The position numbers and the translations under genes were made by a program. Shown one piece after another: positions 4,443-31,396 of a stretch of 32,000 nucleotides of DNA (position 1 is the first letter of the stretch; the number at the start of each line of letters is the position of its first letter). The notes beneath the pieces were generated by a model. It was not told the origin of the DNA, searched no databases, and was given only the letters and a program-made list of their open reading frames with translations. The stretch is from Halomicronema hongdechloris C2206 (GTDB taxonomy: Bacteria > Cyanobacteriota > Cyanobacteriia > Phormidesmidales > Phormidesmidaceae), in the NCBI RefSeq assembly GCF_002075285.3, contig NZ_CP021983.2:420001-452000 (forward strand). The letters run 5' to 3'.

Positions 4443-4748
4443 TTAGTCATATTGCACGATCGCGGTCTGTAGAACGTCGTTTCTGAAATATCGACTCAAA
4501 TCGTTGGATGTTCGTAAGTCGACCTTGCGTTGAATTAGGTCAGAGAGTTCGAGTTCCATGCCAGCCAAGCGAATCAGTCCTGGGGTATGCTCCGGTTCGA
4601 ATTCAACCAGGAAATCGACATCGCTGTCCGGGCAAAAGTCTTCTCGCAGTACTGAACCAAAAAGGGATAGTTTGCGAATGTGGTGGCGCTGGCAAAAGTC
4701 AGCTAGAGCGGGTTTAGGAAGATTGATGGGAAGGGAATGATTCACCAA
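4443..4748 (-). CDS. MNT-type nucleotidyltransferase (antitoxin-like), no adjacent HEPN partner
   Basis: Motif LSLFGSVLREDFCPDSDVDFLVEF (GS...D.D). The start is TTG at 4748 or GTG at 4745, and the GTG forms a GTGA overlap with the dndD-like stop. Confidence 0.85.
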   Translation of the reverse strand: MVNHSLPINLPKPALADFCQRHHIRKLSLFGSVLREDFCPDSDVDFLVEFEPEHTPGLIRLAGMELELSDLIQRKVDLRTSNDLSRYFRNDVLQTAIVQYD

Positions 4749-6711
4749 AAGTAGCCCTCCTTGATTGCGGTCTGCCTCTGACTCGGATCATACTCCAGCA
4801 GATATTCACGTGCGATCGCACCCTGTGCTCTCAATTGCCCGACCTCTTCGGTGCGAATCTCGGTATCGGTAGAGAGGAGGATAACTTGGTGGCTGGCTTG
4901 GGGGAAGTAGCGCTCGACGAGGTGGCGGCGATGTTCGGAGTCGAGGCGACCCAGAGGGGTATCTATTGCCACGGGCAGCTGCCGACCTGAAACACTGGCG
5001 AGGCCCCGCAGGAAGGCGATCGCCAGGAGCTGCTTTTCCCCCGCAGAGAGGCATTGGATGGGGAGGAGGTCACCTTCGGTATCGTAAAGGTCGAGGCGGA
5101 AGGTGTCAGCATCAACCATGACCCGGTGAACCAGGCTGGATTTGTGGAGCAGCAGCAAAAAGTACTGAGTGATGGATTGCTCTAATTCGCCCAACTTCTG
5201 CTTGGTCAGGCGTTTACGAAATTCCACAAGGGTTTTTTGGACACGAGGCGCTGTTGCCAGCAGCGTATTATCTTTACTGGCGTCAATCGCTCGGAACCAT
5301 ATTCAGCCAGCTGTTTTCTCGAGGTTTCCTGCTGGCGTTCTAGCTCGGAGTAGCGGCGGCGATGGAGTTCGAGATTGAATTGACACTCGTTGAGCTGAAG
5401 ACGGGTCTGATCACGTTCTGACCTAAGGCGTTCGTAGTCTTCCGGAGAGGCAGCCTTGGCGAGTTTGGTCTCAATGGCGTCAATGTCATCGGTGAGAGTT
5501 TGAATTTCAATGAGATGGGAGTGGGCCAGCCGCTGTTCGGCGGCGAGTTGGTGCTGCAGGATGTGATTAAGCCGATTAAGCGCATCGTCGGAGGCTTGTA
5601 GCCAGGCATCGCCGTTGGCATTGGCGCTGAGGGTTTCGGCTTCCTGTTCGAGAAAGGTTTGAATGGTCTTTTTCTGGGTGGGTTTGAGCTTGAGCTGGTT
5701 AAGAACTTCGAGCAGGCGCTGATCGTGCTCGGTCAGGGCATCATGGGCAATGGCGGCTTTATGCTGGGCCTGTTCGTGCTGTCCTTGTTGAGCGGCCTCG
5801 GTCAGTAGGTCCTGGACGAGAGCCAGGGGTAGGGTCGAGGCAGCCAGGTCTTGGAGCACCTGGGTTTGGACTCTGATTTCAGTTTTATCGGCATCTAATT
5901 GGTCTTTGAGCGGGACGAGCTGTTCAGTGATGTGACCACCGCTGGCGAAGAAGCGATCCTCGGCAGTTTGTAGAGCGGTTGCGGCTTGGTCGAGGGCGTC
6001 TTGGTAATCTTCGAGGTCATCGGCTGCGGCTTGCAGGTCGGTTTCGACTTGCTCAATCTGGCGGCTGAGAGCTTGGAAGGCATGTTGAGTCGCTTCGTCA
6101 CCGAGTTCAGCCTTTTTGCGACTGACGAGAATAGTCAGGTCATTAGCCAGGCGATCCACGAGTTCTAGCCCCAACACAGAGCGAATAGCGCTGATGACGT
6201 TGGGAGGTGGAGTTTCTTGTTCGGTCAGTTCTTTGATTTGTTCACCATCAAAGAGGAACAGGTTGGAGAGGCCAACGGGGAGCCAGTCTTCGACCTGTTC
6301 ATCCCAGGTTTGGGTGAGAATTTCGTTGGGCCAGCCGTCGAGTTCGACGGTGAGGTCGTCTTTGGTGCCCCGTCGCCAGGTACGAATGACGCGGAGGGTG
6401 CCGAGTTTTTCGATGCCGCTGATGTGGAGCACGCGCTCGAATGCGAGTTCAATGGTGGCTTCGGCATCAGGTGGGGCTTGGGTGTTGACGCACTGAGCCA
6501 AGAAGTCGGCGTAGGGGAGGTTGCGGCGGCGATCAATGGGGGCACGCTGACCGTAAAGCACGAGACGGAGGGCATCCATGAGAGTAGTTTTGCCGCCACC
6601 GTTAAGCCCCCCGATGAGGATGATGGGTTGTTCAGGAGTCGGGCGCAGATCGAGACGATGGCGTCCGTGGTAAGGGCCGAAGTTTTGGAAAACGAGTTCA
6701 CGCAGAATCAT
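4742..6711 (-). pseudogene. dndD: DndD-like SMC/ABC-type ATPase, split by a frameshift into 501-aa and 161-aa ORFs
   Basis: The N-terminus MILRELVFQNFGPYHG...LIGGLNGGGKTTLMDALRLVLYG carries a Walker A, followed by a long coiled coil. The C-terminus LSAGEKQLLAIAFL...LPVAIDTPLGRLDSEHRRHLVERYFPQASHQVILLSTDTEI matches the DndD signature and D-loop region. The N-terminal frame stops at 5206-5208, and the C-terminal frame is open back to the stop at 5303-5305. Confidence 0.8.
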
Positions 6712-7402: not shown

Positions 7403-7744
7403 CTATGCTTTGAGCGAATACAGCAGCGTGCGGCCCGGGGCGATCGCTTCTAAAAAGTAGGGATTTTTAATGGTTTGAATCTCAACCAGATCAATGGTGT
7501 ATCCCAGCAGGTCACTGAGTTCCTGCTTGAGGTCAAAAAAGCGATCGCTGGCCCCTTGAGGGGTATTGATGGCAAATTCGACGAGAAAGTCAATGTCGCT
7601 AGCGGTGTCGTTAAAGCGAGCGCTGGTGGCTGACCCAAAGATCTGTAGCTGAGCCACTTGATGGCGGCGGCACAGTTGCTCAATTTGCGATCGCTTGGCG
7701 GTAATTTCCTGAAGGATCGGAGAGGTTGTTGGGGGCTGGCTCAT
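7403..7744 (-). CDS. MNT-type nucleotidyltransferase, no adjacent HEPN partner
   Basis: ATG at 7744. Motif LQIFGSATSARFNDTASDIDFLVEF. Confidence 0.8.
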   Translation of the reverse strand: MSQPPTTSPILQEITAKRSQIEQLCRRHQVAQLQIFGSATSARFNDTASDIDFLVEFAINTPQGASDRFFDLKQELSDLLGYTIDLVEIQTIKNPYFLEAIAPGRTLLYSLKA

Positions 7745-7803
7745 GGGATCGCTTAATTCCACTCTCGATTGAGTCGGACTGGTTAGTCTAATCGTACTCA
7801 GTT

Positions 7804-8145
7804 TCAGCCGGGGGCTGACCAAATTTCAGGCGGCTCCAGGCGGCTTGGAAGGCGGGCGACATCGATGCTGTCGTCTGACTCCTCGGCGTCGCGATCCTTA
7901 TCGTTATGGGGGGTGCCGCCTTGGGCTTGTTTCATATCGCGGATGGCTTCGGCTTGCTGGATGGCGGCGGCTTTGGGCCGGGCACTGGTCTCGAAGCAGG
8001 CTTCCAGATCTTTGTAGACGCCAGTGCGGCGGCTCATGGTCTGGTATTTGCGTTCGGTGTCGAGGAGTTTGGCGAGGAGTTCGAGGTAGAGGGGGTCGTC
8101 GTCGCAGAGATCTTGGAGGATGGCCCAGGCGTCGGGGGTAATCAC
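7804..8145 (-). CDS. hypothetical protein with an acidic C-terminal tail
   Basis: A GTG start lies 2 nt after the stop of the upstream ORF. The frame is 113 codons long. No family assigned with confidence. Confidence 0.45.
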   Translation of the reverse strand: MITPDAWAILQDLCDDDPLYLELLAKLLDTERKYQTMSRRTGVYKDLEACFETSARPKAAAIQQAEAIRDMKQAQGGTPHNDKDRDAEESDDSIDVARLPSRLEPPEIWSAPG

Positions 8146-8913: not shown

Positions 8914-9456
8914 CTACTCATACCCAATCTTCTCATCAAACTCAATCGCTCCACCCGCACCCCACTCTGCCGGATAACCCCCATCTTTGACATAGCGATG
9001 AAAGCTTGAATAGGGCCAGCCTTGTGGCGAATCGACTAGGCCATGTTTGACAGGGTTGTAGTGAATGTAATCGACATGATGGCGGAAGTCGGTTTCGTTT
9101 CGGATCTGGTGCTCCCAGAACCGACGCTGCCAGATGGCGTGTTCGCCTTTACTGCGACGAGAAGAGGACGGCTGTTGCCGATATGGGTGAGGGCACTGTC
9201 GGCTAAATCGAGCCTTGATCCTTTTCCAGCGAGATGAGAAGTCGGCATCTTCATCGGGCAGTGTCCAAATGCAGTGGAGGTGATCGGGCAAAATGACGAT
9301 GGCGTCGATGGTGAAGGGGGATTCGGTTTTGACGCTGCGGAAGGCTTGGCGAAGGAGTCCGATAGTTGAGTCGTTGTCGAAGAGGGATTGCCGTTGATGG
9401 GTGACGACGGTGAAGAAGTAGGTTGCCCCTGGAATTTTGGCGCGGCGGTAATGCAT
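8914..9456 (-). CDS. REP-associated tyrosine transposase (RAYT, IS200/IS605-like Y1 HUH enzyme)
   Basis: Contains the HUH motif LPDHLHCIW and the catalytic Tyr region VDYIHYNPVKHGLV. It is flanked by REP hairpins. Confidence 0.9.
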   Translation of the reverse strand: MHYRRAKIPGATYFFTVVTHQRQSLFDNDSTIGLLRQAFRSVKTESPFTIDAIVILPDHLHCIWTLPDEDADFSSRWKRIKARFSRQCPHPYRQQPSSSRRSKGEHAIWQRRFWEHQIRNETDFRHHVDYIHYNPVKHGLVDSPQGWPYSSFHRYVKDGGYPAEWGAGGAIEFDEKIGYE

Positions 9457-9548
9457 GGAGATAGTGATGAGTCCATGGGCTTAGGGTAGGCTGCATAGAA
9501 GGAAAGATATCGGTGCTGTTGGGTTTCGCTGCGCTGCACCCAATCTAC
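9194..9548. repeat. copy 1 of a ~355-bp direct repeat (RAYT 5' half plus REP)
   Basis: Aligns base-for-base with 12905..13260 (about 95% identical by eye, with one 1-nt indel). Confidence 0.85.
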
Positions 9549-9550
9549 TA

Positions 9551-10754
9551 GCGCGGCAAGGCTAAAATATTGGGTAAAAGGTCAAGAAGAATGCTGCTAT
9601 GCCCCACCCTGATAAGTACGTTGTCAATCTCAGCGAAAGTGAGCGAGAGCGCCTCAAAGACATTAGTCGCAACGGGAAAGCCCCTGCGAAGAAAATCCTC
9701 CACGCCAGAATCTTGCTTTTGGCTGACCAAACTCATCAAGAGGGCGGTTGGACAGACCAACGCATTGGGGAAGCAATGGGTCTCCATCCCTACAGCGTGG
9801 CTCGCATTCGCAAACGGTTTGTCACGCAAGGAGAAGCGCCAGCGCTCAATCGCAAAGTTCGCACCACCCCGCCTGTGGCCCCCAAAGTAGACGGTGAAGT
9901 TGAAGCTCAACTGGTTGCCATCTGTTGTTCTACGCCCCCTGAGGGACGTGCTCGTTGGACGTTAAATTTATTAGTCGATGCCTTGAAAGCCCGCAGCATT
10001 GTCACCGAAATTAGTCGCGAAACCGTGCGTCAGACGCTTAAAAAAATGAATTACGACCTTGGAAAAAGCAACGATACTGCATCCCAGAGAAAGACACGGC
10101 CCGCTTTGTAGCTCAAATGGAAGTCGTGCTGGACCTGTACACAGCGGAGCACTCGCCTGAAGAGCCCCTCATCTGCATGGATGAAGCGGCGATTGAGTTG
10201 CATAAGGATGTCTATCCATCTCAACCCATGCAGCCAGGTTCAGATGCCAAAGAGGATTACCACTACGAGCGCGAAGGGGTACGCGCGTTGTTCATGTTCT
10301 TTGACCCGATTCGCGGCTGGCGACGGGTGAGTAGCCGAGAGCATCGTACCCGCATCGATTGGGCCGAAGAAGTCAAACAATTGTTAGACGAAGATTATCC
10401 TCATGCTCGCAAGGTCAAACTCTTGTGTGACAACCTCAACACCCATCATATTGCCTCACTCTATGAAGCCTTGGATGCGGATGAAGCCCATCGTTTAGCC
10501 CGGCGATTAGAGCTGTTCTACACCCCACGCAATGGGAGCTGGCTGAATGTCACCGAAATTGAGTTGAGTGTCTTACAGCAGCAATGTCTTGACCGTCGGA
10601 TTGGCGATCCCATTACGCTTGAGCAAGCGTTAGCAGCTTGGCAACAGCAGCGTAATTCACAACAAGCAGGCGTTGTTTGGCGCTTTACCACTCAAGATGC
10701 CAGAATCAAGCTGCGCCGCCTTTATCCTAACCCAGCAAATTAGCCTTGCCACGC
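9551..10754 (+). mobile_element. IS630-family insertion sequence with a TA target duplication
   Basis: The terminal inverted repeats are GCGCGGCAAGGCTAA (9551-) and TTAGCCTTGCCACGC (-10754). TA flanks both ends (9549-9550 and 10755-10756). Confidence 0.9.
9599..10743 (+). CDS. IS630-family transposase; ORFA (9599..10111) and ORFB joined by a -1 frameshift on A7 at 10040-10046
   Basis: A -1 slip on CTT-AAA-AAA-A gives ...TLKKNELRPWKKQRYCIPEKDTARFVAQMEVVLDLY..., a continuous DDE transposase. ORFB carries DNLNTH...NGSWLNVTE. Confidence 0.85.
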
Positions 10755-10797
10755 TACTACAACTGCTATCTTGAGAGTGTTGTAGTGGGCTTGAGCC

Positions 10798-11010
10798 ATG
10801 CAAGATACTCTCAACATTCCTCTAACACCAGAACTAAGGTCCGCGATTGATCGCCTGACTGAGGCAGAAGGCTTATCACCGGAGGGATTAGTGCAGAAGG
10901 CCCTACAAGAGTTTGTCTTTGTGCATCAATTCAGGTCGCTACGAGAGCAGCTTTTGCAAAAGTCTCAGGCTGACTACACTGACGATGACATCTTTGAAAT
11001 GGTGTCATGA
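10798..11010 (+). CDS. small antitoxin-like protein (VapB-type position)
   Basis: 70 aa. Its stop forms an ATGA overlap with a PIN-type start (MILVLDTNVLI). Confidence 0.6.
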   Translation: MQDTLNIPLTPELRSAIDRLTEAEGLSPEGLVQKALQEFVFVHQFRSLREQLLQKSQADYTDDDIFEMVS

Positions 11011-11124: not shown

Positions 11125-11173
11125 TGAATAAATTGGGTGGTTGAATAAATTGGGTGGTGGGCGTTGCTCACCC
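11125..11173. repeat. tandem 17-bp duplication TGAATAAATTGGGTGGT x2 followed by a GGGCGTTGCTCACCC hairpin-like motif
   Basis: The copies lie at 11125-11141 and 11142-11158. The motif TGAATnnATTGGGTGGTGGGC recurs at 12878-12898 on the other side of the HNH cassette. Confidence 0.7.
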
Positions 11174-11268
11174 TACTTTTGCTTAACAGGGCTAGGTTCA
11201 GTGCAAGTTCGATAGTTGCTTCTGGGTAAGCTAGACTCTAAACATCGGTCTTGTAGGGGATAAGCTGA

Positions 11269-11853
11269 ATGCCATCAAAAAGTCAGCTTCAAGCAACGCT
11301 TAAGGAAAAGTATGGCATTAATAAAAATATTACTCAACGTTTGAGTGCAGCAGACTGTGAAAACTTACTAAATCTTCTCGACACTCAATCCAGCGCGGAG
11401 AGGTTGGTTGAAGTATTTGTCGACAAGAACAACGAGCTTTCAAATAATAACCGCTACTTTGGTCAACGCCGAAGTCAGGCAGAGAAGAAGTTTGAGCGAT
11501 TACAAGCGGAACATCATCAGCTACAAAAGTCCATTGCTGAGCTAGAGGCTAAAAACAACAACTTAGGCGAGCGCAAACAGGGGTTATTCGAAGAACAACA
11601 GGCTCTTGAAGCTGAAATCAACAAGCTGACTTCCGAAAACAGAAATTTAAGCGTAAAAGTACAAAGTCTGACAACTCACAATGACGAACTTGTTACAGCT
11701 AATGACCAGCTCAAAAAAGATAACAAGGAACTTAAGAACATAGTCGATCAAATTCGCCTACGGCTAGCTCGCGATACAAAACTGCTTTTGCAATACGAAG
11801 ATAGCGAAATTCGTAAAGCGCTCATCCGCTTATTCCGCTGGACTTTAGGGTAA
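11269..11853 (+). CDS. coiled-coil protein with a short helix-extended-helix-like N-terminus
   Basis: AGGGGA lies 8 nt upstream of the ATG. Residues ~70-175 are heptad-rich (LQAEHHQLQKSIAELEAKNNNL...). The DNA is AT-rich, where long ORFs are unlikely by chance. Confidence 0.7.
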   Translation: MPSKSQLQATLKEKYGINKNITQRLSAADCENLLNLLDTQSSAERLVEVFVDKNNELSNNNRYFGQRRSQAEKKFERLQAEHHQLQKSIAELEAKNNNLGERKQGLFEEQQALEAEINKLTSENRNLSVKVQSLTTHNDELVTANDQLKKDNKELKNIVDQIRLRLARDTKLLLQYEDSEIRKALIRLFRWTLG

Positions 11854-11865
11854 AGGATAGTAGCT

Positions 11866-12294
11866 ATGGGAAGCAAAAAAAGTCAGAAGCGACTCTTCAG
11901 TGGAATGGGTTACCGTGAGGTTCAGCGGTCAAACTCTAACCGTAGAAGTAAATTGCCCAAACAAGATCAAAAATGGCTTAAAGATAATGGCTATAAAAAC
12001 GTTGGCTGGGATAATGTTATAAAACTCTACCAAAAAATTAATGACTTTTTATCCTCTTCTGATTTAGATGACCCTAGCTTAGAAGATCTATTTTTAAAGG
12101 CTGATAAAATTGGCAGTAAGTATCAGACTCAAGAGGAGATAAAAGCTTTTAACCAAGCTCTCAAGCTAGAAGTCGAAGAGATTTCTGATGAAATTGATAA
12201 ACAATTTCCTGATTCAGAATATGAGCTTTTAGATTACAGTCAGCATTCTGTCGGCAAAACAAGTAAAAAGGCTAATACAAAGCGTAAAAAGTAA
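11866..12294 (+). CDS. hypothetical basic protein that shares a segment with the N-terminus of the downstream HNH protein
   Basis: AAGGA RBS, 12 nt after the upstream stop. SLEDLFLKADKIGSKY (aa 71-86) resembles TLQDLFKLADKVGNRRY in the next gene. Confidence 0.65.
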   Translation: MGSKKSQKRLFSGMGYREVQRSNSNRRSKLPKQDQKWLKDNGYKNVGWDNVIKLYQKINDFLSSSDLDDPSLEDLFLKADKIGSKYQTQEEIKAFNQALKLEVEEISDEIDKQFPDSEYELLDYSQHSVGKTSKKANTKRKK

Positions 12295-12300
12295 TATTTT

Positions 12301-12771
12301 ATGAGTTCTTGTCCTATGTCTATGGAAGAAGAAAAAACGCTTCAAGATCTCTTTAAGCTAGCTGATAAAGTTGGCAATAGGCGTTACCACAAACTGACTC
12401 GTCAGGATCTTCAAGATTATCGAAAATTTGACTACTGGCGATATGTGAACGGTGATAGCGAATGCGGAACGACAGAGGAAAGTAGGCAATGGGCTAGAGA
12501 CAACTCAGAGCACTACTGCCCTGTATGTGGAGAACGATTCAGTAGGAATAATGGCAGAAGTATCGATCATAAATTGCCTCGTGCTCAATATCCCTGGCTA
12601 TCGCTAGATTTCAGAAACTTATGGGTGATTTGCCATCAATGCAATCAAGAAAAAGGAGAGATGCACTGGTATGAATATGAGCACTATATTTTTACTAGAT
12701 ATCCCGAAAGATACGAAGATATTGTATTCGCTAGGCCAAGACAACTCCTCAAACGCTCAAAATCTAAATAG
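12301..12771 (+). CDS. HNH endonuclease
   Basis: CPVCGERF...SIDHKLPR...NLWVICHQCNQEKG is a CxxC plus H-N-H zinc-finger nuclease motif. The gene starts 6 nt after the upstream stop. Confidence 0.8.
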   Translation: MSSCPMSMEEEKTLQDLFKLADKVGNRRYHKLTRQDLQDYRKFDYWRYVNGDSECGTTEESRQWARDNSEHYCPVCGERFSRNNGRSIDHKLPRAQYPWLSLDFRNLWVICHQCNQEKGEMHWYEYEHYIFTRYPERYEDIVFARPRQLLKRSKSK

Positions 12772-12877
12772 TATTCAAGTTTTCGACGTTTGTGATGGAT
12801 GGGGTTTATGGGAAGGATTGGGGATGTCGGCGCGAAGGGAAAGAGGCCGCGTTTGAGGATGAGGGGTTAGCGGTGGG

Positions 12878-12907
12878 TGAATGTATTGGGTGGTGGGCAG
12901 TGCCCAC
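12878..12907. repeat. REP-like motif TGAATGTATTGGGTGGTGGGCAGTGCCCAC (right-hand partner of 11125..11173)
   Basis: Shares TGAATnnATTGGGTGGTGGGC with the left copy and contains the GTGGGCA/TGCCCAC inverted repeat. Confidence 0.6.
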
Positions 12908-13168
12908 TGTCGGCTAAATCGAGCCTTGATCATTTTCCAGCGAGATGAGAAGTCGGCATTTTCATCGGGCAGTGTCCAAATGCAGTGGAGGTGATCGGGC
13001 AAAATGACGATGGCCGTCGATGGTGAAGGGGGATTCGGCTTTGACGCTACGGAAGGCTTGGCGAAGGAGTCCGATAGTTGAGTCGTTGTCGAAGAGGGAT
13101 TGTCGTTGATGGGTGACGACGGTGAAGAAGTAGGTTGCCCCTGAGGTTTTGGCACGGCGATAGCGCAT
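12905..13168 (-). pseudogene. truncated and frameshifted RAYT copy (5' half only)
   Basis: MRYRRAKTSGATYFFTVVTHQRQSLFDNDSTIGLLRQAFRSVKAESPFTID is followed by a 1-nt insertion (GATGGCCGTCGATGG versus GATGGCGTCGATGG in copy 1). IVILPDHLHCIWTLPDE..ARFSRQ continues in another frame, and homology ends at 12905. Confidence 0.85.
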
Positions 13169-13260
13169 GGAGATTGTGATGAGTCCATGGGCTTAGGGTA
13201 GGCTGGATGGAAGGAAAAATATCGGTGATGTTGGGTTTCGCTGCGCTGCACCCAATCTAC
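12905..13260. repeat. copy 2 of the ~355-bp direct repeat (RAYT 5' half plus REP)
   Basis: Same orientation as 9194..9548. Confidence 0.85.
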
Positions 13261-13443
13261 GAGAGCGATGCGATAGCACTTATAGTGTTCTTAAGAGGAA
13301 TGAATCATGCTTACACACCAGATGTAGGACTTGACTTTCCCGTACAATACCACCTAACAACGATAGGTGCATGCTCGTTCCATGCAGCATATAATTGAGA
13401 GGTACACATCTTTATTAATCAGAAGTGAGACAACGCTATAAAG

Positions 13444-14433
13444 ATGAAAATGAGCATACCAAAAGAAATTCAAGATTGTATACAAACTATATCAAACCAA
13501 CTTGATGCCGATCTATTACTTTATAGTGCAGACATTGATGAGGAAAATGCAGATATTTTAATAGAAGCCATTCGCAAAAAGGCTCCTAAGAGAGAAAATG
13601 TTGTCTTGATCTTAGCGACTTATGGAGGTGATCCGGATGCTGCTTATAGAATTACACGTTGCCTGAAGAGAGCGTATAGCAAATTTACATTGTTTATTTT
13701 TGGCTACTGCAAGAGCGCTGGCACTTTGATCGCCATTGGTGCTGATGAAATAGTTATGTCGGATCTTGCTGAACTTGGTCCTTTAGATGTCCAAGTCTTA
13801 AAAGAAAATGATTTTAGAAGATCTTCTGGTCTTGACTTACAACAAGCGCTTACTATTTTGGGCCATGAAACATTTAATGCTTTCGAAGTTGGCTTTCTTT
13901 CAACTATTTATAAGTCAGGTGGAGTTATTACCTCCAAAATGGCGGCTGATATTGCAAGCAATATGGCAATTGGGTTACTAGCCCCCATTGCTGGTCAAAT
14001 AGATCCTCTGAGACTGGGCGAACTTTCTAGATCTATGCAAGTCGCTTATGAATATGGGACAAGGCTAAACCCAAATATAAAAAAATCTATTAACAAGCTA
14101 GTCGCTGGATATCCATCTCATAGCTTCGTCATTGATAGAGAAGAAGCGCAAGAATTATTTCGGAATGTCCGTAAACCGACAGATGCAGAATCAATCTTGG
14201 AATCTGTATTGTATGAGTGTGCGAGATCACCTGCCCCTCAAGATATGATATTCTCCTTGGATGTTTCCCTAACGGAAGAAGATCAAGAATATCAGGAGCA
14301 CAAGCAAGCTGAAAATCTAGAGGAAGCTAATGAGCATGGAGGACAACATGAATTTAATGGAAAGAGGGAACATATCGATGATGCTACTTCAACAAATGAA
14401 TCGGTTGGAGAAGATAAAGCCGAGACAACATGA
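13444..14433 (+). CDS. SDH-family / ClpP-SppA-fold serine protease-like protein with an acidic C-terminal tail
   Basis: VVLILATYGGDPDAAYRITRCLKR...FIFGYCKSAGTLIAIGADEIVMSDLAELGPLD fits the Clp-fold serine protease core (nucleophile Ser in KSAGT). Recognised from memory of PF01972-like sequences. Confidence 0.7.
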   Translation: MKMSIPKEIQDCIQTISNQLDADLLLYSADIDEENADILIEAIRKKAPKRENVVLILATYGGDPDAAYRITRCLKRAYSKFTLFIFGYCKSAGTLIAIGADEIVMSDLAELGPLDVQVLKENDFRRSSGLDLQQALTILGHETFNAFEVGFLSTIYKSGGVITSKMAADIASNMAIGLLAPIAGQIDPLRLGELSRSMQVAYEYGTRLNPNIKKSINKLVAGYPSHSFVIDREEAQELFRNVRKPTDAESILESVLYECARSPAPQDMIFSLDVSLTEEDQEYQEHKQAENLEEANEHGGQHEFNGKREHIDDATSTNESVGEDKAETT

Positions 14434-14656
14434 GAAAGCATCTGGGGCTCTTGATGAAGATCAACGGTTAATCAGAATAAATGTCTTCAACCATAAAAAC
14501 TTTGATTTTGAAGGACAGAAAAGTAACAGTAAGTTATTGACGAGGGAGGAATTTGTTAGGCGACTAAACAATGTTGACCTTGATAAAATCAATTACGAGA
14601 TATCTTCCCGTAATAACACAAACAAAAGCAAAAATCAGGAAGCAAATGGAGATTAA
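14378..14656 (+). CDS. hypothetical Lys/Asn-rich small protein; start uncertain
   Basis: A 108-codon open frame (track 14330..14656) in AT-rich DNA. The in-frame ATGs at 14378, 14381 and 14396 all overlap the protease 3' end, and there is no ATG after 14433. Confidence 0.35.
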   Translation: MMLLQQMNRLEKIKPRQHEKASGALDEDQRLIRINVFNHKNFDFEGQKSNSKLLTREEFVRRLNNVDLDKINYEISSRNNTNKSKNQEANGD

Positions 14657-14747
14657 AGTCGATAGTTCCCTCGTCTATTCTTATGGGCTATTTAGGCTTA
14701 CTTGATCAACTCGCCTGAGTTTTGTCGATAAAATATTTCTCTAGGCC

Positions 14748-14926
14748 CTTAGTAGTGCAGAAACCTCAGACGAGTCTCATTTGAGACTAAGATGCGTTCA
14801 AAATCGTTCTCTGAAACCTCGAAAATAGGTGGTTGTGGCGCTTGATAACTGACAAAGGGCTAAGATGGCTCTTTTCATGAGATTCCTTTGGTAGCAATAC
14901 TTTCAGGACTGTTTTGCACCACTAAG
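14748..14926. mobile_element. 179-bp MITE-like element with imperfect ~16-bp terminal inverted repeats and a 9-bp target duplication
   Basis: The left TIR is CTTAGTAGTGCAGAAAC, and the reverse complement of the right TIR is CTTAGTGGTGCAAAAC. CTCTAGGCC is present at 14739-14747 and 14927-14935. Confidence 0.6.
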
Positions 14927-15148
14927 CTCTAGGCCTGAGCTCGAGGTATTCTGTATTGGCTAAATCAGGGGGCCAAGGGTCAGTCTGTTTTACCTTTCTT
15001 TCTTTTCTTTCGACTAAACCATAGTCGAAAAGGCCGTTTAGGAGATTTTTCGGAATCCTCGACATCCTTGTAAATGAAGGTTTTAGCACAACCATCCTCC
15101 ACTACTTCCACTAGAACACGCTTCCGTTTAGGAACGCTGGACAACAAA

Positions 15149-15988
15149 TTAGACATTATTCTTCGTCCTCCATAACAGTCGAATCGCCCCGCTTCTAGCT
15201 ATTATCCAGTCTATCGCCTCATCATGTAGCGACTTATCCTCCATCCTGAGTATATTATCAGAATTATCTGAGTCGATGGCAAGTAATCCTGCAATTGAAC
15301 CTTCTTGAAAAACTGCTGCCACCAGTACGACTTGTATATTTCTATTTATTAGGATTTTGTTTTCATCGGTCAAATGTCTATAGCTCGACGGCAAGGAAGC
15401 TGAATTGGCAAAGTTAATAAATTCTATGCGTTGTTTCTTGTTTTTTAGAAAAGTGTATCCGACTACACCTTCATTCAGACTGAATTTAGCTAAAAGCTCT
15501 TTCTCTGGAACATTTTTAGTCCTACAAACCATCTGAAACTTCCAGGCAAAGAAATTCTGTCTCACAGGAATAAAAATGGTGATTCTAATATTTTCACTAA
15601 GATGAAACTTCTGTCTAAATCTCTTCTTTAAAGCATTTAGTTCAATCGCAATAGCAGGTATGAGATTCTCCTCGACCACTATGGAAAGTTGACCAGCCTC
15701 TCTTTTAGAAGCTAAAGTATAAGACACCCAAGGTATAACGTATGATAATGAAATCACAATTATTGAAATTATAGTCGCCATTCGTTCATTCCTAAAAATT
15801 GTCCAGGAGTTGGGAATAGGACTACTTTCTTCCAGGAAAAAGGATTGAGTGTCGCTCAAGCTGATTATAATCAGTGTAGTAATAAAAAATAGAGAAAGTA
15901 GTACCTGAATAAAGTGAAATTTACGTAATAAATAATCGAGTTCATATTGGATGGTTTTTCTAATGCACAGCAAGTTGGATTTTGACAT
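15149..15988 (-). CDS. membrane protein: two N-terminal TM helices plus a C-terminal GAF-like domain
   Basis: ATG at 15988. The hydrophobic helices are FIQVLLSLFFITTLIIISL and MATIISIIVISLSYVIPWVSY. The C-terminal ~150 aa show a GAF-like pattern (IRITIFIPV, NEGVVGYTF, IQVVLVAAVFQEGSIAGLLAIDSD). Confidence 0.7.
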   Translation of the reverse strand: MSKSNLLCIRKTIQYELDYLLRKFHFIQVLLSLFFITTLIIISLSDTQSFFLEESSPIPNSWTIFRNERMATIISIIVISLSYVIPWVSYTLASKREAGQLSIVVEENLIPAIAIELNALKKRFRQKFHLSENIRITIFIPVRQNFFAWKFQMVCRTKNVPEKELLAKFSLNEGVVGYTFLKNKKQRIEFINFANSASLPSSYRHLTDENKILINRNIQVVLVAAVFQEGSIAGLLAIDSDNSDNILRMEDKSLHDEAIDWIIARSGAIRLLWRTKNNV

Positions 15989-15991
15989 GCC

Positions 15992-16258
15992 TTACTCTTT
16001 AACGGCAAATGGAGATCGATAAATTCTATCGATTTCAAATGTTAATCTAGTTAATCTTCTTTCCCAGGTAAGTTTTATTATTTTTATGTCCGCGAAAGCA
16101 ACCCATTCTTCATTTACCAATGGGATCGGAACATCAACTGGGAAAATTCGATACCCATCTTTTTGAGCCTCATATTGTTTGTTGAAATCTAAGTTTTCCG
16201 GATATCCTTGTGCTTTTCTGATTTTCAATATGCTGTTTACTTCGCATGGCATTCCCAC
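15992..16258 (-). CDS. small protein, DUF2584-like (tentative)
   Basis: A GTG start with AAGGAG 7 nt upstream gives MGMPCEVNS...KDGYRIFPVDVPIPL. From memory this resembles the Firmicutes DUF2584 family (MGMP...GYR.YP.D.P). Its stop lies 3 nt before the next ATG. Confidence 0.65.
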   Translation of the reverse strand: MGMPCEVNSILKIRKAQGYPENLDFNKQYEAQKDGYRIFPVDVPIPLVNEEWVAFADIKIIKLTWERRLTRLTFEIDRIYRSPFAVKE

Positions 16259-16426
16259 TTTTTTACTCCTTAAGAATTGCTTGAAGTAATGAGACTGATA
16301 ATATTTGATAATTAATATAATAGAAGGCTAGCTGTCGGTTATCTAAACTGCATGCTTTGATCTCCAGACCTCGCATATCAAGGAATTCGACTGACCAGTT
16401 TAGTAGTATAGCAGCTTAAACATTTT

Positions 16427-16664
16427 TTAGGTATTATGTACTCCCCATCTCTCCCGATGCCACCTCAACTCTTCCAAACTTGGCATAAACCTTTCCTCCC
16501 TCAGTAACTCAATCGGCTCTCCCTATAAACTCCATCTTTCCTTGACTTTCCACCGCTGCCTCCTCCCTAAAACGCTCCCAGGGAATCACAATGCGGTGAT
16601 CGGCATCCATTACATCGAGCTTTTTGAGAAACTTGATAGCCCTTTTACTGAATCGAACCTCCAT
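16427..16664 (-). pseudogene. chimeric relic: RelE/ParE-like toxin N-terminus fused to a decayed 3' tail of an HNH-nuclease paralog
   Basis: The ATG at 16664 gives MEVRFSKRAIKFLKKLD (RelE/ParE-type start), then ...RIVIPWERFREEAAVESQGKMEF, homologous to IPWDRFMEEAAVESRGMMAF of 18201..19142. After an indel, the shifted frame continues GEPIELLREERFMPSLEELRWHRERW to the stop at 16427. Confidence 0.6.
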
Positions 16665-17022: not shown

Positions 17023-18252
17023 CAGGGCTATTTCATTCTAAAAATGGCCTTGAGGGTATCTAGACCAAACTTGCAGAGTCGTTCAGCCTGAGCCATATTG
17101 GCGAACTCGTTGGAGCGATAGAGGTTGAGCGCGAAGTTTCGAGCGACGGCGAAGATTTGCGGCAACTGGTGCATACGAATGCGCGAAGCATCTTCTCCCT
17201 GGGTCACATCCCGGATATGATGTACCTTATTTTCAACGCCCCAATAGCCCCGAATGCGCCGAGCCAAGGATTCCGCTGATTCTAAAAACGAGGCGACATA
17301 GTAGCGGGTCTCAGTTTCTAAGTGAGGCTGCCCGCCCTTCTTGAAGTGTCGCTCACTCTCCACTCGAATGAGCGTCTTCAGCCCTGGCCAGGGCTTGATG
17401 TTATCGAGGGTGGTGCATAGGCTAACGACCCGCTTCTCCAGTCGCCCATGCCCTTTACTGACCTCGGTGTAGCTGTCCTCAGCGATAAAGTTGGCCTGAA
17501 CGCTTTTGTGCAAGTTACCCTGATTGCCTTTGAGGGCACCCAAGTAATGATTGTCGGTGTCAAGGATGAGCTGACAGTTTTTTTTGGGTGCTAATCGCAT
17601 CAAAGGCTATCACCACCCCCTTCAGCGCCAGTTGCTTAATGAACTCGGGCAGGGCTTTGATTTCGTTGGTCTTGTGCTCTACCTGATAGGGCTCCAGAAT
17701 CAACCCCCGCTCCACCAGATAAGCACTGACCAATAGAATGGCGGGATGAGGGGGAGAGTCAGGATTGTCAGTCTCCAGTTGATACGACCCGCGTAAGACT
17801 TTGCCATCCACCGCTAAGGTTTCACCGGCTAACGGTTCAATGCCAAAGAACCGAGCCAAGGCCGCCGAATACTGTCCATAGTCTAGCTTTAGCAGCACCC
17901 GGCGAATCGTGCTGTAGGAGGGAAGACGGCCCTTGGGCGGGTTGAAGAGGTCAATCAACTCGCTGCGGTAGCTTTTGAGCCAGTCGCCAATGGCCAGAAA
18001 TCCACGATTACCGGCCGTCACCGCCAGGGTGAAGAGCGCCAGGCATAAGGCCATCTGATGTCGTTTGCCAGAGGCCTGACGGACATCTGGCAGGGCAACG
18101 AAGGCTTCGAGGATCTCGATGCGCTCTACAGCAGGCTCATGCCTCGAGTCGAGGGTAGTAGGGGTAGGGGGCAGACGCATAGACGCTAGGACCATTGGGA
18201 TTAGCCTGAAACTCTAGCATCTTTAGGTCCCCTTGAGAATGAAATGGCCCTG
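17023..18252 (-). mobile_element. ISAs1-family insertion sequence with a 9-bp target site duplication
   Basis: The inverted repeats are CAGGGCTATTTCATTC (17023-) and GAATGAAATGGCCCTG (-18252). The duplication TCCCTCGGT lies at 17014-17022 and 18253-18261. Confidence 0.85.
17028..18195 (-). pseudogene. ISAs1-family transposase split by a frameshift at an A8 run
   Basis: ORF1 ends ...AFDAISTQKKLSAHP* and ORF2 reads APKKNCQLILDTDNHYLGALKGNQ. A -1 shift on the CAAAAAAAAC run (plus-strand T8 at 17578-17585) restores DAISTQKKNCQLILDTDNHYLGALKGNQ, which matches the family pattern. Confidence 0.8.
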
Positions 18253-19142
18253 TCCCTCGGTAACTCAATCCGCTCTCCCCTAAACGCCATCATGCCTCGG
18301 CTTTCCACTGCTGCTTCTTCCATAAACCTATCCCAGGGAATCAAAATACGGTAGCTGTCATCTAGCCCAAACCAGCCGTGGTCGAAGGCCCAGTGGTGAT
18401 TTTTGCAGAGGGCGAGGCCGTTGACGAAGCGATCGTCGCGAAACTCTGAGAATGGCATGATGTGCGCCCCGTCTACAATGGTTACCCCATCCCAACTCAC
18501 CACCCGCACCTTACAGAACGCGCAGCGCTGGTCATACAGCTTCACCACATTGCGCCGAAAGGCGGCATTGCGGACAAAAATGCGGTCTTCATCCTTCAGG
18601 TCTTCTACATTGTAGATAGCCCCGCCGGAGTCAAACAGGGATTGCTGTATGAAGTCAAACTCGTCGTACTTAAACGACTCGGCGATCTCACTTTCCTTTT
18701 CAGGGAACCAGGCCTGAATCAGGATAGTAGTCAGTTCCTGGCGACTTTGGGAGGCTTGCAGCAATACAAACAGCTCTGGGTCCACATAGGCATACTTCAC
18801 TGCCGATCGCAGCGCTGATAGGCTTCTTAGCTTGACCCTGGCCTGAATCGTCGCCTCAAATCCTGGATTTGGCATCAGATACCAGAACTTGTCGCCCGTC
18901 AGATGGAAGAAGGGCAGCGCAATATTGGAGTGATGATCGCTGGAGACAAAGCGATGCCAGAACTTGAGGAAGTTGGCCGTTAGCTCTGGAGATAGATAAA
19001 TCTCATTGCGATGAATCTTGCCCTTCTCTAGCAAGTCGATAATCGTTAGCAGCAAAATTGGCTTGTGGGGGGCAACCCCCCGCGCCCGATCTACCCGTAG
19101 ATTTGCAAACTTCTTGGCATAGTATTGCAAATCCCGTTTCAT
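18201..19142 (-). CDS. HNH (HNH_2-type) endonuclease with an N-terminal DNA-reader-like domain; 3' end replaced by the IS
   Basis: The C-terminal CAFCKVRVV...VDGAHIMPF...NGLALCKNHHWAFDHGWF is an HNH motif. The N-terminal RARGVAPHKPILLL...LPFFHLTGDKFWYL is typical of type IV restriction-like proteins. The last 17 codons (18201-18252) lie inside the ISAs1 element. Confidence 0.8.
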   Translation of the reverse strand: MKRDLQYYAKKFANLRVDRARGVAPHKPILLLTIIDLLEKGKIHRNEIYLSPELTANFLKFWHRFVSSDHHSNIALPFFHLTGDKFWYLMPNPGFEATIQARVKLRSLSALRSAVKYAYVDPELFVLLQASQSRQELTTILIQAWFPEKESEIAESFKYDEFDFIQQSLFDSGGAIYNVEDLKDEDRIFVRNAAFRRNVVKLYDQRCAFCKVRVVSWDGVTIVDGAHIMPFSEFRDDRFVNGLALCKNHHWAFDHGWFGLDDSYRILIPWDRFMEEAAVESRGMMAFRGERIELPRDRAISFSRGPKDARVSG

Positions 19143-27076: not shown

Positions 27077-28063
27077 ATGAATGCTGCCTCGTTTTCATCA
27101 AGCCCTGCCGATGCGCCCGCCCGCCCGGTGGTGGTGCAAACCCATGAGTTGAGTAAGGTCTATCGAGCTGGATTCTGGTTAAATCAAGCCATCACCTCCT
27201 TGCGCCGCTGCTCTCTGACGGTGTATCAGGGGGAGACCTTCGGGCTATTGGGGCCTAACGGGGCGGGTAAGACGACGTTGCTGAAGATCTTACTGGGGAT
27301 GGTCCGGCCCACGTCGGGGCGAGTGCTGCTGTTGGATCATTCGGTGGATGACCGCCGCACCAAGCAACGCATTGGCTATTTGCCGGAAAATCCTTATTTC
27401 TATGACTTTCTGACCGGCTGGGAATTTTTGCAGTACACGGCGGGGGTATTCGGCCTATCGTCGTCGCTGCAGCGGCAGCGAATTCCGGCCCTGTTGGACT
27501 TGGTGGGGTTGGCCCGCAGCACGGTTAAGAAGAAGCCACTGCGGCAATATTCCAAGGGGATGTTGCAGCGCATCGGCATTGCCCAAGCCCTGATTAATGA
27601 TCCTGAGGTGGTGTTTTTGGATGAACCGATGTCGGGGCTAGACCCCATGGGCCGCTACCAGGTGCGGGAGATTATCTTGTCGCTGCAGGATCAGGGTAAG
27701 ACGATTTTCTTCAATAGCCATATCCTCTCGGATGTGGAGATGATTTGCGATCGCATCGCCATCCTGGACGGGGGAGAACTGGTCTGTGTCGGCGGTGTCA
27801 ATGAACTGTTGGGCATTGCCAACCAATACTTCGTCAAGGGCCGCGGCGGCACCCTAGATGTCCTAGAACAATGGCTAGAGGACCTAGACTTCCAAGGAGG
27901 TTACTGGCGCGGCTATCTCAAGGGAGAGCCCTACGACTTTATGGCCAGCCTGCAGCTGATGAACGGCAAGATCGCCACCCTGCAACTGGCCCGCCCTTCC
28001 TTGGAAGAATTTTTTGTACAGCGCATCCGCCAACGTCGGAATCAGCAGGGCGATCACAGATGA
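27077..28063 (+). CDS. ABC transporter ATP-binding protein (ABC-2 type)
   Basis: Walker A GPNGAGKTT, signature-like YSKGMLQRIGIA and Walker B VVFLDEPMSGLD. Confidence 0.9.
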   Translation: MNAASFSSSPADAPARPVVVQTHELSKVYRAGFWLNQAITSLRRCSLTVYQGETFGLLGPNGAGKTTLLKILLGMVRPTSGRVLLLDHSVDDRRTKQRIGYLPENPYFYDFLTGWEFLQYTAGVFGLSSSLQRQRIPALLDLVGLARSTVKKKPLRQYSKGMLQRIGIAQALINDPEVVFLDEPMSGLDPMGRYQVREIILSLQDQGKTIFFNSHILSDVEMICDRIAILDGGELVCVGGVNELLGIANQYFVKGRGGTLDVLEQWLEDLDFQGGYWRGYLKGEPYDFMASLQLMNGKIATLQLARPSLEEFFVQRIRQRRNQQGDHR

Positions 28064-29614: not shown

Positions 29615-31396
29615 TTAAGGCGATAGCTCACACAATACCTGCTCCCTGGGATGGAGTGCGGGCCGAGCCAAGTAATCCTGCAGCCACTCACAGCCTCGGT
29701 CCAACACCTCAGCCAATGACAGGTGTTCGACTGGGAGCATTCGAACGGTGCCAGTTTGGCTGACAGCGATGATGCGATTGCCCTCAGCATCGAAACTGAC
29801 AATTGCTCCGGTTCCCTGGTCATCACGAAATTCGGCGAGCTGTTGTCCTAAGCGATTCCAAAGCCTGATAGTACCATCTCCCGCGGCGGTTACTACATAT
29901 CGATCGTCTGGACTAAAATTAACGCTGGTGACCCCTTCTTTATGGCCACGCAACTCCGTTAACAGGGTTCCCGTCGAGCCCCACAAACGAGTTGTACCAT
30001 CATCACTAGCCGTTGCAATTGCCTTACCATCATGGCTAAACTTTATAGCCCAAATAGCATCTTGATGCCCCTGGACGTTAGCAATTAAGGTTCCCGATTT
30101 AGTCCACAGGCGCATAACCCCATCATTTCCTCCCGTCACCATTGTCTCCCCATCAGGACTAATATCACTGTCCCAGATGACGTCCTCATGTCCCTTGAGC
30201 TCAACGGTCAGATGGCTAGACAAGTCCCACAGTCTAGCCACTGGGTCAAAAGCTGTGACCAACAGAGCTTGACCATTGGGATGAAATACCGCACTACTGA
30301 CCAACCTAGAGGAATCGCGTAGCATCGCAATTTCTTTGCCCTCGCGGTTCCATAGCCGCACTGTGGCATCATCCAATGAGCCATCGTCACTAACATCCAT
30401 ACTCCAAACCGTACTGGTATGGGCATTAACTTTATTTCTTTCCTGAATGTTGTCAAGAATCGTCTTCAGGACTACCAGAGGCTGCGTTGTGGGATAGTCT
30501 TCTAAGGGACGATTATCATCCACTAGGGCCTTTAATTCTAGTCCATTCTCCATGGCACTGAGTAACGCATCTAGGGGAGCCGTTTCAAATTTACTCAGGG
30601 CATAATTGCTTTCTCGTTCTAGATAAGTGGCTACCTTGGCCTCTTCGAGTTTTAGGTTGGCTTTCTGTAGCTTACGAGACGCTTGAATCGTCAGGATGCT
30701 AACGGCTGTAGCTACACAGAGCGTGACTCCTAGCACAATGGAACCGAAGCGAACCATGTGCTTAGCTCGTTCTCCAGCTGCGACTAACCTACCGTTTGCA
30801 GCTTCTACTTCGGCACTCTTGGTGATATAGGTTTGGTGCTGTTGGGTGGGCAGCGGAGTATGGTCTTCCTGCCAGGCTTCTGTTAACCAACGTTCTGCTT
30901 CTGCTAAATCGCCCCCTCGCAATAGATAATCATCCTGACGGTGCTTCTTCTCCCACTCCAGAGCACGAACCAATAATCGAGTATGAGCTTTGATATGGAC
31001 TAAATCAGTGTTGAGGGTATTGACCAATGACTGAAAGGCTAACTTGAAGTCATGCTCCTCCTGGAAGAACAGCCAGTTGGTCCTGCTGATAGCTGGATGG
31101 ACCGAAGCCATATCAAACCCTTCCTGGCGCACAATTGGCACCAGTCGCTTATTGTGCTCAATGGCATGATCAATCTCTTGCCGACATACTGTTGAGGCAA
31201 TGGAATGAGGGCTGATGATAAAAATAAAGGTATCTGCAGCTTCAATTCCCGCCTGAATCTCAGCCCACCAATCAGCCGTGAGAGGAATATCTTCCCAGTC
31301 TACCCACGCATCATATTTGCTCTCGACTAGGGCTCGATTGAGAATCTGGACAAATTCCTTATCTTTGCGAGAATAGGAAATAAAAACATCAGTCAT
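29615..31396 (-). CDS. TIR domain - coiled coil - TM helix - WD40 repeat protein
   Basis: The N-terminal FISYSRKDKEFV...ADTFIFIISPHSIASTVCRQEIDHAI is a TIR_2-type domain with the conserved Glu. The hydrophobic helix is FGSIVLGVTLCVATAVSILTI. Six to seven WD repeats follow (GH..V....FSxDG...T...DGTxRLW). Confidence 0.9.
   Translation of the reverse strand: MTDVFISYSRKDKEFVQILNRALVESKYDAWVDWEDIPLTADWWAEIQAGIEAADTFIFIISPHSIASTVCRQEIDHAIEHNKRLVPIVRQEGFDMASVHPAISRTNWLFFQEEHDFKLAFQSLVNTLNTDLVHIKAHTRLLVRALEWEKKHRQDDYLLRGGDLAEAERWLTEAWQEDHTPLPTQQHQTYITKSAEVEAANGRLVAAGERAKHMVRFGSIVLGVTLCVATAVSILTIQASRKLQKANLKLEEAKVATYLERESNYALSKFETAPLDALLSAMENGLELKALVDDNRPLEDYPTTQPLVVLKTILDNIQERNKVNAHTSTVWSMDVSDDGSLDDATVRLWNREGKEIAMLRDSSRLVSSAVFHPNGQALLVTAFDPVARLWDLSSHLTVELKGHEDVIWDSDISPDGETMVTGGNDGVMRLWTKSGTLIANVQGHQDAIWAIKFSHDGKAIATASDDGTTRLWGSTGTLLTELRGHKEGVTSVNFSPDDRYVVTAAGDGTIRLWNRLGQQLAEFRDDQGTGAIVSFDAEGNRIIAVSQTGTVRMLPVEHLSLAEVLDRGCEWLQDYLARPALHPREQVLCELSP

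Follow-up and report, generated by a model that had tools for sequence, protein, structure and literature searches.

In the defence system Septu, of which the retron Ec78-associated PtuAB is one form, the HNH protein PtuB is paired with the ATPase PtuA. HNH DNases are also paired with immunity proteins in colicins and pyocins, and HNH proteins serve as accessory factors of portal/terminase packaging, as in the case of HK97 gp74. On the phage side, mimicry of antitoxins is known as a counter-strategy. A domain fused to a portal or MuF protein is generally interpreted as an effector packaged in the virion and injected, DarB is interpreted as an anti-restriction protein, and polyvalent proteins are scarce in cyanobacteria (PMC5512222). 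Here we analyze a cassette of three genes (g1, g2 and g3) in a stretch of 32,000 nucleotides (nt) from Halomicronema hongdechloris C2206 (contig NZ_CP021983.2, positions 420,001 to 452,000; hereafter the window), encoding a coiled-coil protein, a small adaptor and an HNH nuclease. The trio is a real operon, conserved across cyanobacteria, for which a literature search found no earlier description, and sequence comparisons support its assembly through a peptide that adaptor and nuclease have in common.

A conserved three-gene operon of cyanobacteria

The three open reading frames (ORFs) lie on the forward strand at positions 11269-11853 (g1, 194 amino acids [aa], the scaffold protein), 11866-12294 (g2, 142 aa) and 12301-12771 (g3, 156 aa, the HNH nuclease). 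They are intact and share the same reading frame, and the ORF listing reproduces the coordinates and the spacers of 12 nt (g1-g2) and 6 nt (g2-g3) on which the original prediction, made from the sequence alone, had been built. Alternative g3 starts at M6 or M8 would give a g2-g3 spacer of 21 or 27 nt, the usual length among homologues, and the true start among M1, M6 and M8 is uncertain. The cassette had been described as lying in AT-rich DNA, which agrees with a GC content of 0.39-0.42 for the trio versus 0.53-0.58 over most of the window. A putative extended -10-like promoter element, TGGGTAAGCT (11223-11232, forward strand), is located 36 nt 5' of the g1 ATG, and a TGGGTA(A/C)ACT-type element is found at equal distance 5' of g1 in many related loci from several genera. 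A simple sigma-70 scan of the window made no call at this element because it lacks a -35 match, and an Rfam search of the window returned no RNA family.

Scanning one genome per species with exact peptide patterns from g3 identified at least 204 matching species, a lower bound because the patterns were exact, and the 80 retrieved loci with a taxon in their title are all cyanobacterial. Carriers include Nodosilinea, Leptolyngbya, Coleofasciculus, Nostoc, Anabaena, Chlorogloeopsis and Chroococcidiopsidaceae. Close homologues of g3 number about 400 (62-92% identity), those with an organism name being without exception cyanobacterial; the homologues of g1 and g2 are likewise all cyanobacterial, and all are annotated as 'hypothetical'. 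The original prediction had been staked on the trio recurring elsewhere, and tblastn recovers the order g1-g2-g3 in 79 of 80 genome loci, the single exception being interrupted by a contig end. Of 81 loci, 68 have a g1-g2 spacer of 8-14 nt, with 12 nt being the length in 43; the g2-g3 spacer is variable. Ratios of nonsynonymous to synonymous substitution rates (dN/dS) range from 0.04 to 0.27 over the three genes (0.09-0.27 for g1, 0.04-0.19 for g3 and within the overall range for g2), indicating purifying selection.

Almost all carriers have a single locus, and one copy resides on an Acaryochloris megaplasmid. Flank synteny is retained within genera only, and in the six annotated contexts besides this one the adjoining genes are housekeeping genes, such as ilvD, fur, coaX, gltX, thiG and chlB. 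None of the seven annotated contexts has phage genes near the trio, and the inspected loci have no terminase, integrase or capsid gene. The GC content of the trio is below that of its flanks in 83 of 83 loci (mean difference -8.6 points), and GC content at third codon positions (GC3) is lower in 77 of 80; the low GC content is thus a property of the trio itself, and we rejected recent horizontal transfer as its cause on the strength of these counts. Of the gene clusters specific to cyanobacteria that were encountered in this analysis, the trio is one of the more broadly conserved.

As originally predicted, the CxxC/HNH nuclease is confined to the third gene. The g3 product passes the Pfam HNH profile (PF01844; 31.2 bits, cutoff 21.4), and searches of Pfam, NCBIfam and PADLOC assign no family to g1 or g2, which is also in keeping with the predicted absence of an ATPase. 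HNH is the only superfamily to which a member of the trio can be assigned, with the profile cutoff passed and the catalytic and Zn-binding residues kept: both CxxC pairs (C73, C76, C111, C114) as well as D89, H90, N106 and N115 are invariant. Pfam, hhalign and AlphaFold2 together divide the protein into N-terminal helices (residues ~8-50), paralogous to the start of the g2 C-terminal module described below, and a Zn-finger HNH core (~70-125). The AlphaFold2 model (predicted local distance difference test score of 79 overall) shows a long helix at residues 8-29 and a strand-strand-helix arrangement at 86-119. Foldseek searches with this model returned generic HNH domains only (Cas9 HNH, Gme HNH, Cap5 and PtuB, all with E>=5e-3), and the g3 profile had no match among PDB sequences. 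We therefore regard g3 as an active-looking Zn-finger HNH nuclease with intact catalytic residues.

Profile searches and homologue alignments divide g1 into a conserved N-terminal helical domain (~1-60), a variable coiled coil (~60-130) and a C-terminal segment (~131-194, ending in ...QYEDSEIRKALIRLFRWTLG). Its homologues are nearly always exactly 194 aa long, and their last ~60 residues are almost invariant. At least two unrelated types of N-terminal domain, one of the MPSKxxLQxxLKEKYGINKN type and one UBA-like, of the MNKSQAIKLLESEAWTKADAMRAL type, precede the same C-terminal segment; the UBA-like domain is found in Nostoc and in a fused g1-g2 variant (L070 5006-5539, other Nostoc loci, and L094 912-1445). 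The N-terminus had been likened to a helix-extended-helix domain, a label that the Pfam search leaves unconfirmed, with no match to HeH, SAP or Rho_N. All matches of g1 are to coiled-coil models and fall below threshold, and its profile yields only compositional coiled-coil matches among PDB sequences.

The second gene encodes what appears to be a two-module adaptor. Searched against 1.8 billion representative proteins, the g2 profile splits into an N-terminal module (N-module, ~5-62) and an acidic C-terminal module (C-module, ~67-125). The N-module (residues 1-62, 11866-12051, net charge +10) displays the pattern F.GM.Y..VQ..N...GYKNVGWDNV and also begins many small proteins on its own. The C-module (residues 63-127, 12052-12246, net charge -12) reads SLEDLFLKADKIGSKYQTQEEIKAFN...IDKQFPD..E.LDYS, has the consensus LEDLFxEADRIGNKYQTxEEIxAF...IDxQFPD..E.IDYS, contains the motif shared with g3 and, like g2 as a whole, belongs to no Pfam family. 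Charge count and alignment further delimit a basic C-terminal tail (12247-12294 with the stop codon, net charge +7); all three parts are on the forward strand. The earlier description of g2 as a basic protein hence holds for its overall net charge of +5 and misses its bipolar build. The AlphaFold2 model is extended, with a predicted template modelling score (pTM) of 0.28 and a helix at residues 72-85, which is probably what one would expect of a partner-dependent protein. Foldseek searches with this model against PDB and BFVD gave nothing meaningful, and g2 had no match among PDB sequences (profile search) or known antitoxin families.

The shared motif, the natural fusion and the sister cassette

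The motif common to g2 and g3 is SLEDLFLKADKIGSKY in g2 (residues 71-86, 12076-12123, forward strand), coinciding with the predicted helix 72-85, and TLQDLFKLADKVGNRRY in g3 (residues 13-29, 12337-12387, forward strand), within the predicted helix 8-29. Both BLASTP (8 of 15 residues identical, E=0.001) and hhalign detect the relationship, the latter aligning residues 65-96 of the g2 family with residues 7-44 of the g3 family over 32 columns (probability 89%, E=2e-6). The best 15-mer BLOSUM62 score is 46, compared to 24.3+/-3.7 (maximum 43) in 2000 shuffles, none of which reaches 46. The original prediction had placed the related segment at exactly these coordinates and had noted a similarity at the DNA level, which amounts to 75% identity over 36 nt. 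In each of the 71 distinct locus pairs from which both motifs could be extracted, g2 and g3 alike have the core L-x-x-L-F-x-x-A-[DN]-x-[IV]-G..Y. Covariation between these copies (type A) yielded no information because the core positions are invariant. Identification of LEDLF/LQDLF as a beta-clamp-binding motif (QL[SD]LF) was considered and rejected on inspection, since the Q varies and the register is shifted by one position.

The arrangement of g1 and g2 is illuminated by a natural fusion. Residues 1-120 of P0402 (177 aa) align with Nostoc-type g1 (46% identity, E=2e-30), residues 95-175 align with the g2 C-module (41%, E=5e-16), and what is missing is precisely the C-terminal segment of g1 together with the N-module of g2. 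Since the usual arrangement has g1 and g2 in the same frame with 12 nt between them, P0402 looks like the product of a clean in-frame deletion. A g3 orthologue (54% identity) that keeps the N-terminal motif lies directly 3' of it. The fusion argues that g1 and g2 act as one unit, and the two deleted parts may form a non-covalent joint between the separate proteins.

Searches with the N-module also uncovered a sister cassette. Its members are a coiled-coil protein (146-231 aa), an adaptor with the N-module (105-135 aa) and a third protein (126-176 aa). The cassette was found in Cyanobacterium sp., in Symploca and, in clusters of 199-348 members, in Microcystis aeruginosa; the Microcystis adaptor in NIES-2549 is MYAER_1008. 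The third protein passes the Pfam HNH profile in the tested Microcystis-type and L134 forms, and the Cyanobacterium-type form has no Pfam match. Adaptor and nuclease of this cassette have no type-A helix in common; they share instead their extreme C-terminal tails, which co-vary between sub-lineages (adaptor/HNH: KYPLL/RYQLL, RYPIL/RYPIL, KYKPL/KFKPL and LKLKYQ/IKSKYL). The sharing of a short peptide between adaptor and nuclease is therefore a design principle conserved in the superfamily, and these tails are the strongest support for the docking idea. At another locus (L096 197-981), the place of the HNH protein after the N-module protein P0410 is taken by an ORF whose signature, GRIDILT...EVIEVK, is PD-(D/E)xK-like; this may be an effector swap, a candidate found on a contig of 981 bp, with an ORF that has no Pfam match.

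Taken together, the invariance of the motif in both families, the co-varying tails of the sister cassette and the natural fusion support the earlier suggestion that the shared segment behaves as a docking module. That suggestion had the segment docking on the coiled-coil protein, for example, and a direct pairing of g2 with g3 would fit the data equally well.

Phage-borne copies of the adaptor module and the possible role of the complex

The g2 C-module is also encoded by phages. It is present in four proteins of the representative library with Portal_Mu or Phage_portal_3 domains and in two further portal fusions on IMG/VR contigs, for a total of six portal fusions, as well as in proteins of 1572 aa and 1924 aa on viral contigs. 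Furthermore, it occurs in a 2420-aa protein with N6-methyltransferase and SNF2 helicase domains, a DarB-like architecture, on a 103-kb phage-like contig with a portal gene nearby. The sequence of the module is strikingly conserved among these otherwise unrelated large proteins. Of g1, g3 and the two modules of g2, only the C-module was found in viral contigs; the 2.9 million contigs of IMG/VR contain no relative of g1, g3 or the N-module, and g2 has no relative in 50,697 phage genomes. The original prediction had allowed that homologues of the trio might turn out to be phage structural or packaging genes. This does not apply to g1 and g3, and in the case of g2 the C-module rides on phage portal proteins as an accessory.

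Cultured phages with the closest relatives of the two portals from IMG/VR include Synechococcus phage S-CBS4, Aphanizomenon phage vB_AphaS-CL131 and Leptolyngbya phage Lsp-JY19, and the module-bearing phages are therefore, judging by portal similarity only, probably cyanophages. In several of the phage proteins (L088 6279-9428, L089 6159-8804, P0397, P0398 and P0400) the module is preceded by a Cys-rich stretch (e.g. KKTCKTGLSCGGTCISKSKVC) and followed by LPxxVS+xLKPKKFD, and P0393 has two C-modules in tandem.

A scaffold-adaptor-nuclease complex built through paralogous docking peptides is well supported by the comparisons presented above, and a defence role for such a complex is plausible. 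The model that we favor, with a probability of roughly 40%, is that the trio encodes a cyanobacterial nuclease complex that acts on invading DNA and is countered by the phage copies of the C-module. According to this model, the scaffold would be g1, a coiled coil preceded by a small N-terminal domain for targeting. The bipolar g2 would serve as adaptor or regulator, tied to g1 probably through its N-module and the invariant g1 C-terminus, and g3 would be the Zn-finger HNH nuclease. The acidic C-module of g2 and the N-terminal helices of g3 would pair pseudo-symmetrically, or take turns at one site, and this pairing or competition would tether the HNH protein to the scaffold or restrain it there. 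The complex would hit invading DNA as a constitutive, vertically inherited module of a restriction-like or abortive kind, and phages would deliver the C-module on virion-packaged, injected proteins, leaving g3 sequestered or mis-tethered. As the C-module alone is found in phages, and there on proteins that reach the cell together with the DNA, the simplest interpretation would be that it interferes with or exploits the g2/g3 contact, and this in turn suggests that the complex acts on incoming DNA. It is from such patterns that we infer which parts are in physical contact, that g2 controls the nuclease, that the complex acts against phages and that the phage module is a mimic.

Two further observations count in favor of the model. 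GC content and GC3 are persistently below those of the host genome, low GC being common for conflict genes, and the closest PADLOC models to the g3 HNH core are those of the defence HNH proteins PtuB and PDC-M01B (E ~1e-11 to 1e-12). Several others weigh against it. The distribution of the trio is core-like rather than patchy, being near-universal in the clade with largely vertical inheritance; its within-genus synteny and its housekeeping neighbours in the six other annotated contexts are atypical for defence; and the sequences are conserved to a degree that is unusual in defence genes. For the extended model of g2 there is no structural neighbour, and the phage-type C-module has no match in cultured phage genomes. 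The phage module could also recruit the host nuclease or bind a different host factor. Lastly, the predicted contact between the g1 C-terminus and the g2 N-module is uncertain because the N-module is conserved in both cassette types and the scaffold C-termini differ.

Much of the same evidence feeds the main and serious rival explanation, which we consider possible: a housekeeping complex of DNA metabolism, in which the coiled coil would position the HNH protein on DNA, for instance on recombination, repair or segregation intermediates of the polyploid chromosome, and in which the phage-borne adaptor module would hijack or neutralise a host factor without the complex being an immune system. 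Such a role would suit a trio whose nuclease matches at least 204 species, with every listed record that names a taxon being cyanobacterial, and whose sister cassette extends the coverage to Microcystis and Cyanobacterium. It would likewise suit a chromosomal and nearly always single-copy locus with within-genus synteny and housekeeping neighbours, under strong purifying selection, with the length of g1 almost fixed at 194 aa and a conserved putative promoter upstream. It accounts poorly for the persistently atypical GC3 and for the lack of linkage between the trio and any known repair domain or partner gene. Moreover, the modular build of the system, with swapped docking peptides, alternative g1 N-terminal domains and fusions, is more typical of conflict systems, and the C-module is found on injected phage proteins, one of them DarB-like.

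Two other explanations are less likely than a housekeeping role. The trio could be a tripartite module resembling toxin-antitoxin (TA) systems, with g3 as a DNase toxin, g2 as the antitoxin, g1 as a regulator or sensor and the phage modules as antitoxin mimics; g2 would then comprise a basic N-terminal region and an acidic, toxin-neutralising C-terminal region, as in colicin DNase/immunity protein (Im) pairs. Small and tightly spaced genes with the putative antitoxin 5' of the enzyme agree with this proposal, as do the bipolar charge and extended predicted fold of g2, which is probably partner-dependent, and the fact that the phage-borne copies comprise the acidic C-module only. We nonetheless find it unlikely: TA loci are usually multi-copy, mobile and patchy, whereas the trio is nearly always single-copy and largely vertical; the presence of the motif in g3 itself suggests tethering or assembly rather than occlusion of the active site; and the fusion variant has the module covalently attached to the scaffold. 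Least probable is a domesticated or selfish phage-derived element, either a packaging-type HNH gene acting with portal and terminase or a homing cassette, with the motif as a portal or capsid targeting signal, since the portal fusions of the C-module, the AT-richness of the cassette and the known accessory role of HNH proteins such as HK97 gp74 in packaging are set against the absence of viral relatives of g1 and g3 in IMG/VR and of g2 in the 50,697 phage genomes, the lack of terminase, integrase or capsid genes near inspected loci, a stable position within genera, and no signs of homing (no multiple copies, no insertion into conserved genes).

Returning to the nuclease complex acting on invading DNA, a bolder version of it is tentative and rather doubtful: the trio would be a phylum-wide, vertically inherited innate nuclease complex whose assembly code is the docking peptide. 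Cyanophages would have copied the peptide module onto portal, DarB-like and internal virion proteins, and the mimic injected in this way would disarm or hijack the host HNH protein at DNA entry. As part of this version, the docking interface would have diversified into at least two forms, the internal helix (type A) and the C-terminal tail (type B), and mimicry of an assembly interface would, if true, represent a new class of defence and counter-defence.

Whatever its function, g1 and g2 are 'hypothetical' in every source and yet widely conserved, including, through the sister cassette, in bloom-forming Microcystis. If the operon does restrict foreign DNA, it would constitute a barrier to phage, and possibly to transformation, in many filamentous cyanobacteria, and it would imply that immune modules can belong to the core and evolve slowly. 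The 57-residue module common to host and phage provides a testable handle on cyanophage anti-defence, a field with few characterised examples, and assembly through a shared peptide, together with the natural fusion, provides an interaction map for experiments.

Genomic surroundings and comparison with known systems

The surroundings of the trio in this genome include mobile elements. A repetitive extragenic palindromic (REP)-associated tyrosine transposase (RAYT; Y1_Tnp, 180 aa) is encoded on the reverse strand at 8914-9456, and a truncated second copy, 93-98% identical, lies directly 3' of the trio at 12905-13267. The trio is flanked by REP-like hairpins, GGTGGGCGTTGCTCACC and GGTGGGCAGTGCCCAC, and by tandem 17-mers, TGAATAAATTGGGTGGT (11125-11172 and 12872-12907), which suggests that the surrounding DNA of this genome has undergone a rearrangement mediated by REP/RAYT. 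Positions 9546-10759 are occupied by an IS630-type element that has inverted repeats of 30 nt, its transposase being split into a helix-turn-helix ORF (9599-10111) and a DDE_3 ORF (10117-10743). Just 5' of the trio, a 70-aa ORF (10798-11010, forward strand) weakly matches phrog_5333 (E=2.6e-5) and looks like a ribbon-helix-helix or antitoxin protein; it was not found beside the trio at other loci.

A second low-GC stretch (0.36-0.42) extends over 13300-16500 and encodes an SDH-type ClpP-like serine protease (13444-14433; phrog_21683, E=2.6e-81, and Pfam SDH_protease) and ORFs with no family on the reverse strand (14330-14656 and 15149-15988). The protease and the other low-GC ORFs were considered as members of the system and rejected, none of them being found beside the trio in 85 loci. 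Elsewhere in the window, a DndD/PbeC-type ATPase is split over 4742-6711 on the reverse strand, with 5206-6711 matching model positions 1-484 (E=8e-142) and 4742-5227 matching positions 501-659 (E=4.5e-76), and is probably a frameshifted defence gene. An ORF near it matches PDC-S09 (7403-7822, reverse strand). As further conflict-type genes, the window encodes a 593-aa TIR-WD40 protein (29615-31396, reverse strand), a 313-aa HNH_2 protein (18201-19142, reverse strand) adjoining a DDE_Tnp_1_assoc ORF, and an ORF matching the mad3/AriA models (27077-28063, forward strand). The window thus holds the split DndD/PbeC gene, the TIR-WD40 gene and the PDC-S09-like ORF as defence-type genes, along with transposases, and the six other annotated contexts of the trio are mainly housekeeping.

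Among described systems, Septu had been offered as an analogy, and the trio does share with it a small HNH effector beside a non-catalytic partner. The g3 HNH core matches the PADLOC PtuB1 models (E ~1e-11, core only), and PtuB chains are among the weak Foldseek matches. Membership in Septu nevertheless fails: the Pfam, NCBIfam and PADLOC searches detect no ATPase domain in the trio, and g3 scores 16.1 bits against the NCBIfam PtuB equivalog NF041761, for which the cutoff is 150. In the trio, the nuclease is partnered by a helical adaptor, with which it has a motif in common, and by a coiled-coil protein, and the system is restricted to cyanobacteria and largely vertical. Similarly, g3 matches the PDC-M01B models (E ~3e-12) over ~65 residues of profiles with 210-366 positions, and g1 and g2 have no match to PDC-M01A, so that the A+B pair defining PDC-M01 is absent. 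The original statement that the trio corresponds to no named system therefore stands.

With colicin and pyocin DNases and their immunity proteins, and with type II TA systems, the trio has in common an HNH DNase beside a small, acidic and helical potential inhibitor, and its architecture is compatible with type II TA. It differs from them in that g2 matches Im proteins in neither sequence nor fold, that there is a third gene, for the scaffold, that g3 itself carries a paralogue of its partner's motif, and that the locus is core-like and nearly always single-copy. Lamassu LmuB and Wadjet JetC resemble the trio in joining a long coiled coil to a nuclease effector, and g1 matches them weakly (E 6e-5 to 3e-2); in contrast to them, g1 has only 194 aa and no ATPase head, and the matches lie within coiled-coil segments only and look compositional.

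Packaging HNH proteins of the HK97 gp74 type are comparable as small HNH proteins with a tie to portal and terminase, which here runs through the portal fusions that bear the adaptor module; g3, however, is host-encoded, absent from viral collections and never found beside terminase or portal genes. Homing endonuclease genes differ from the trio in that it occurs mostly at one locus per genome, with within-genus synteny, and g3 is always accompanied by g1 and g2. The phage proteins bearing the C-module have the same architectures, portal fusions and the 2420-aa N6-methylase and SNF2 protein, as P1 DarB and other polyvalent or portal/MuF-fused effectors (PMC5512222), from which they are set apart by a module that lies outside Pfam families and is common to a host operon. 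Among multi-gene systems with an HNH effector, the trio is thus unusual in its shared docking peptide, its phylum-wide conservation and the phage-borne copy of its adaptor module.

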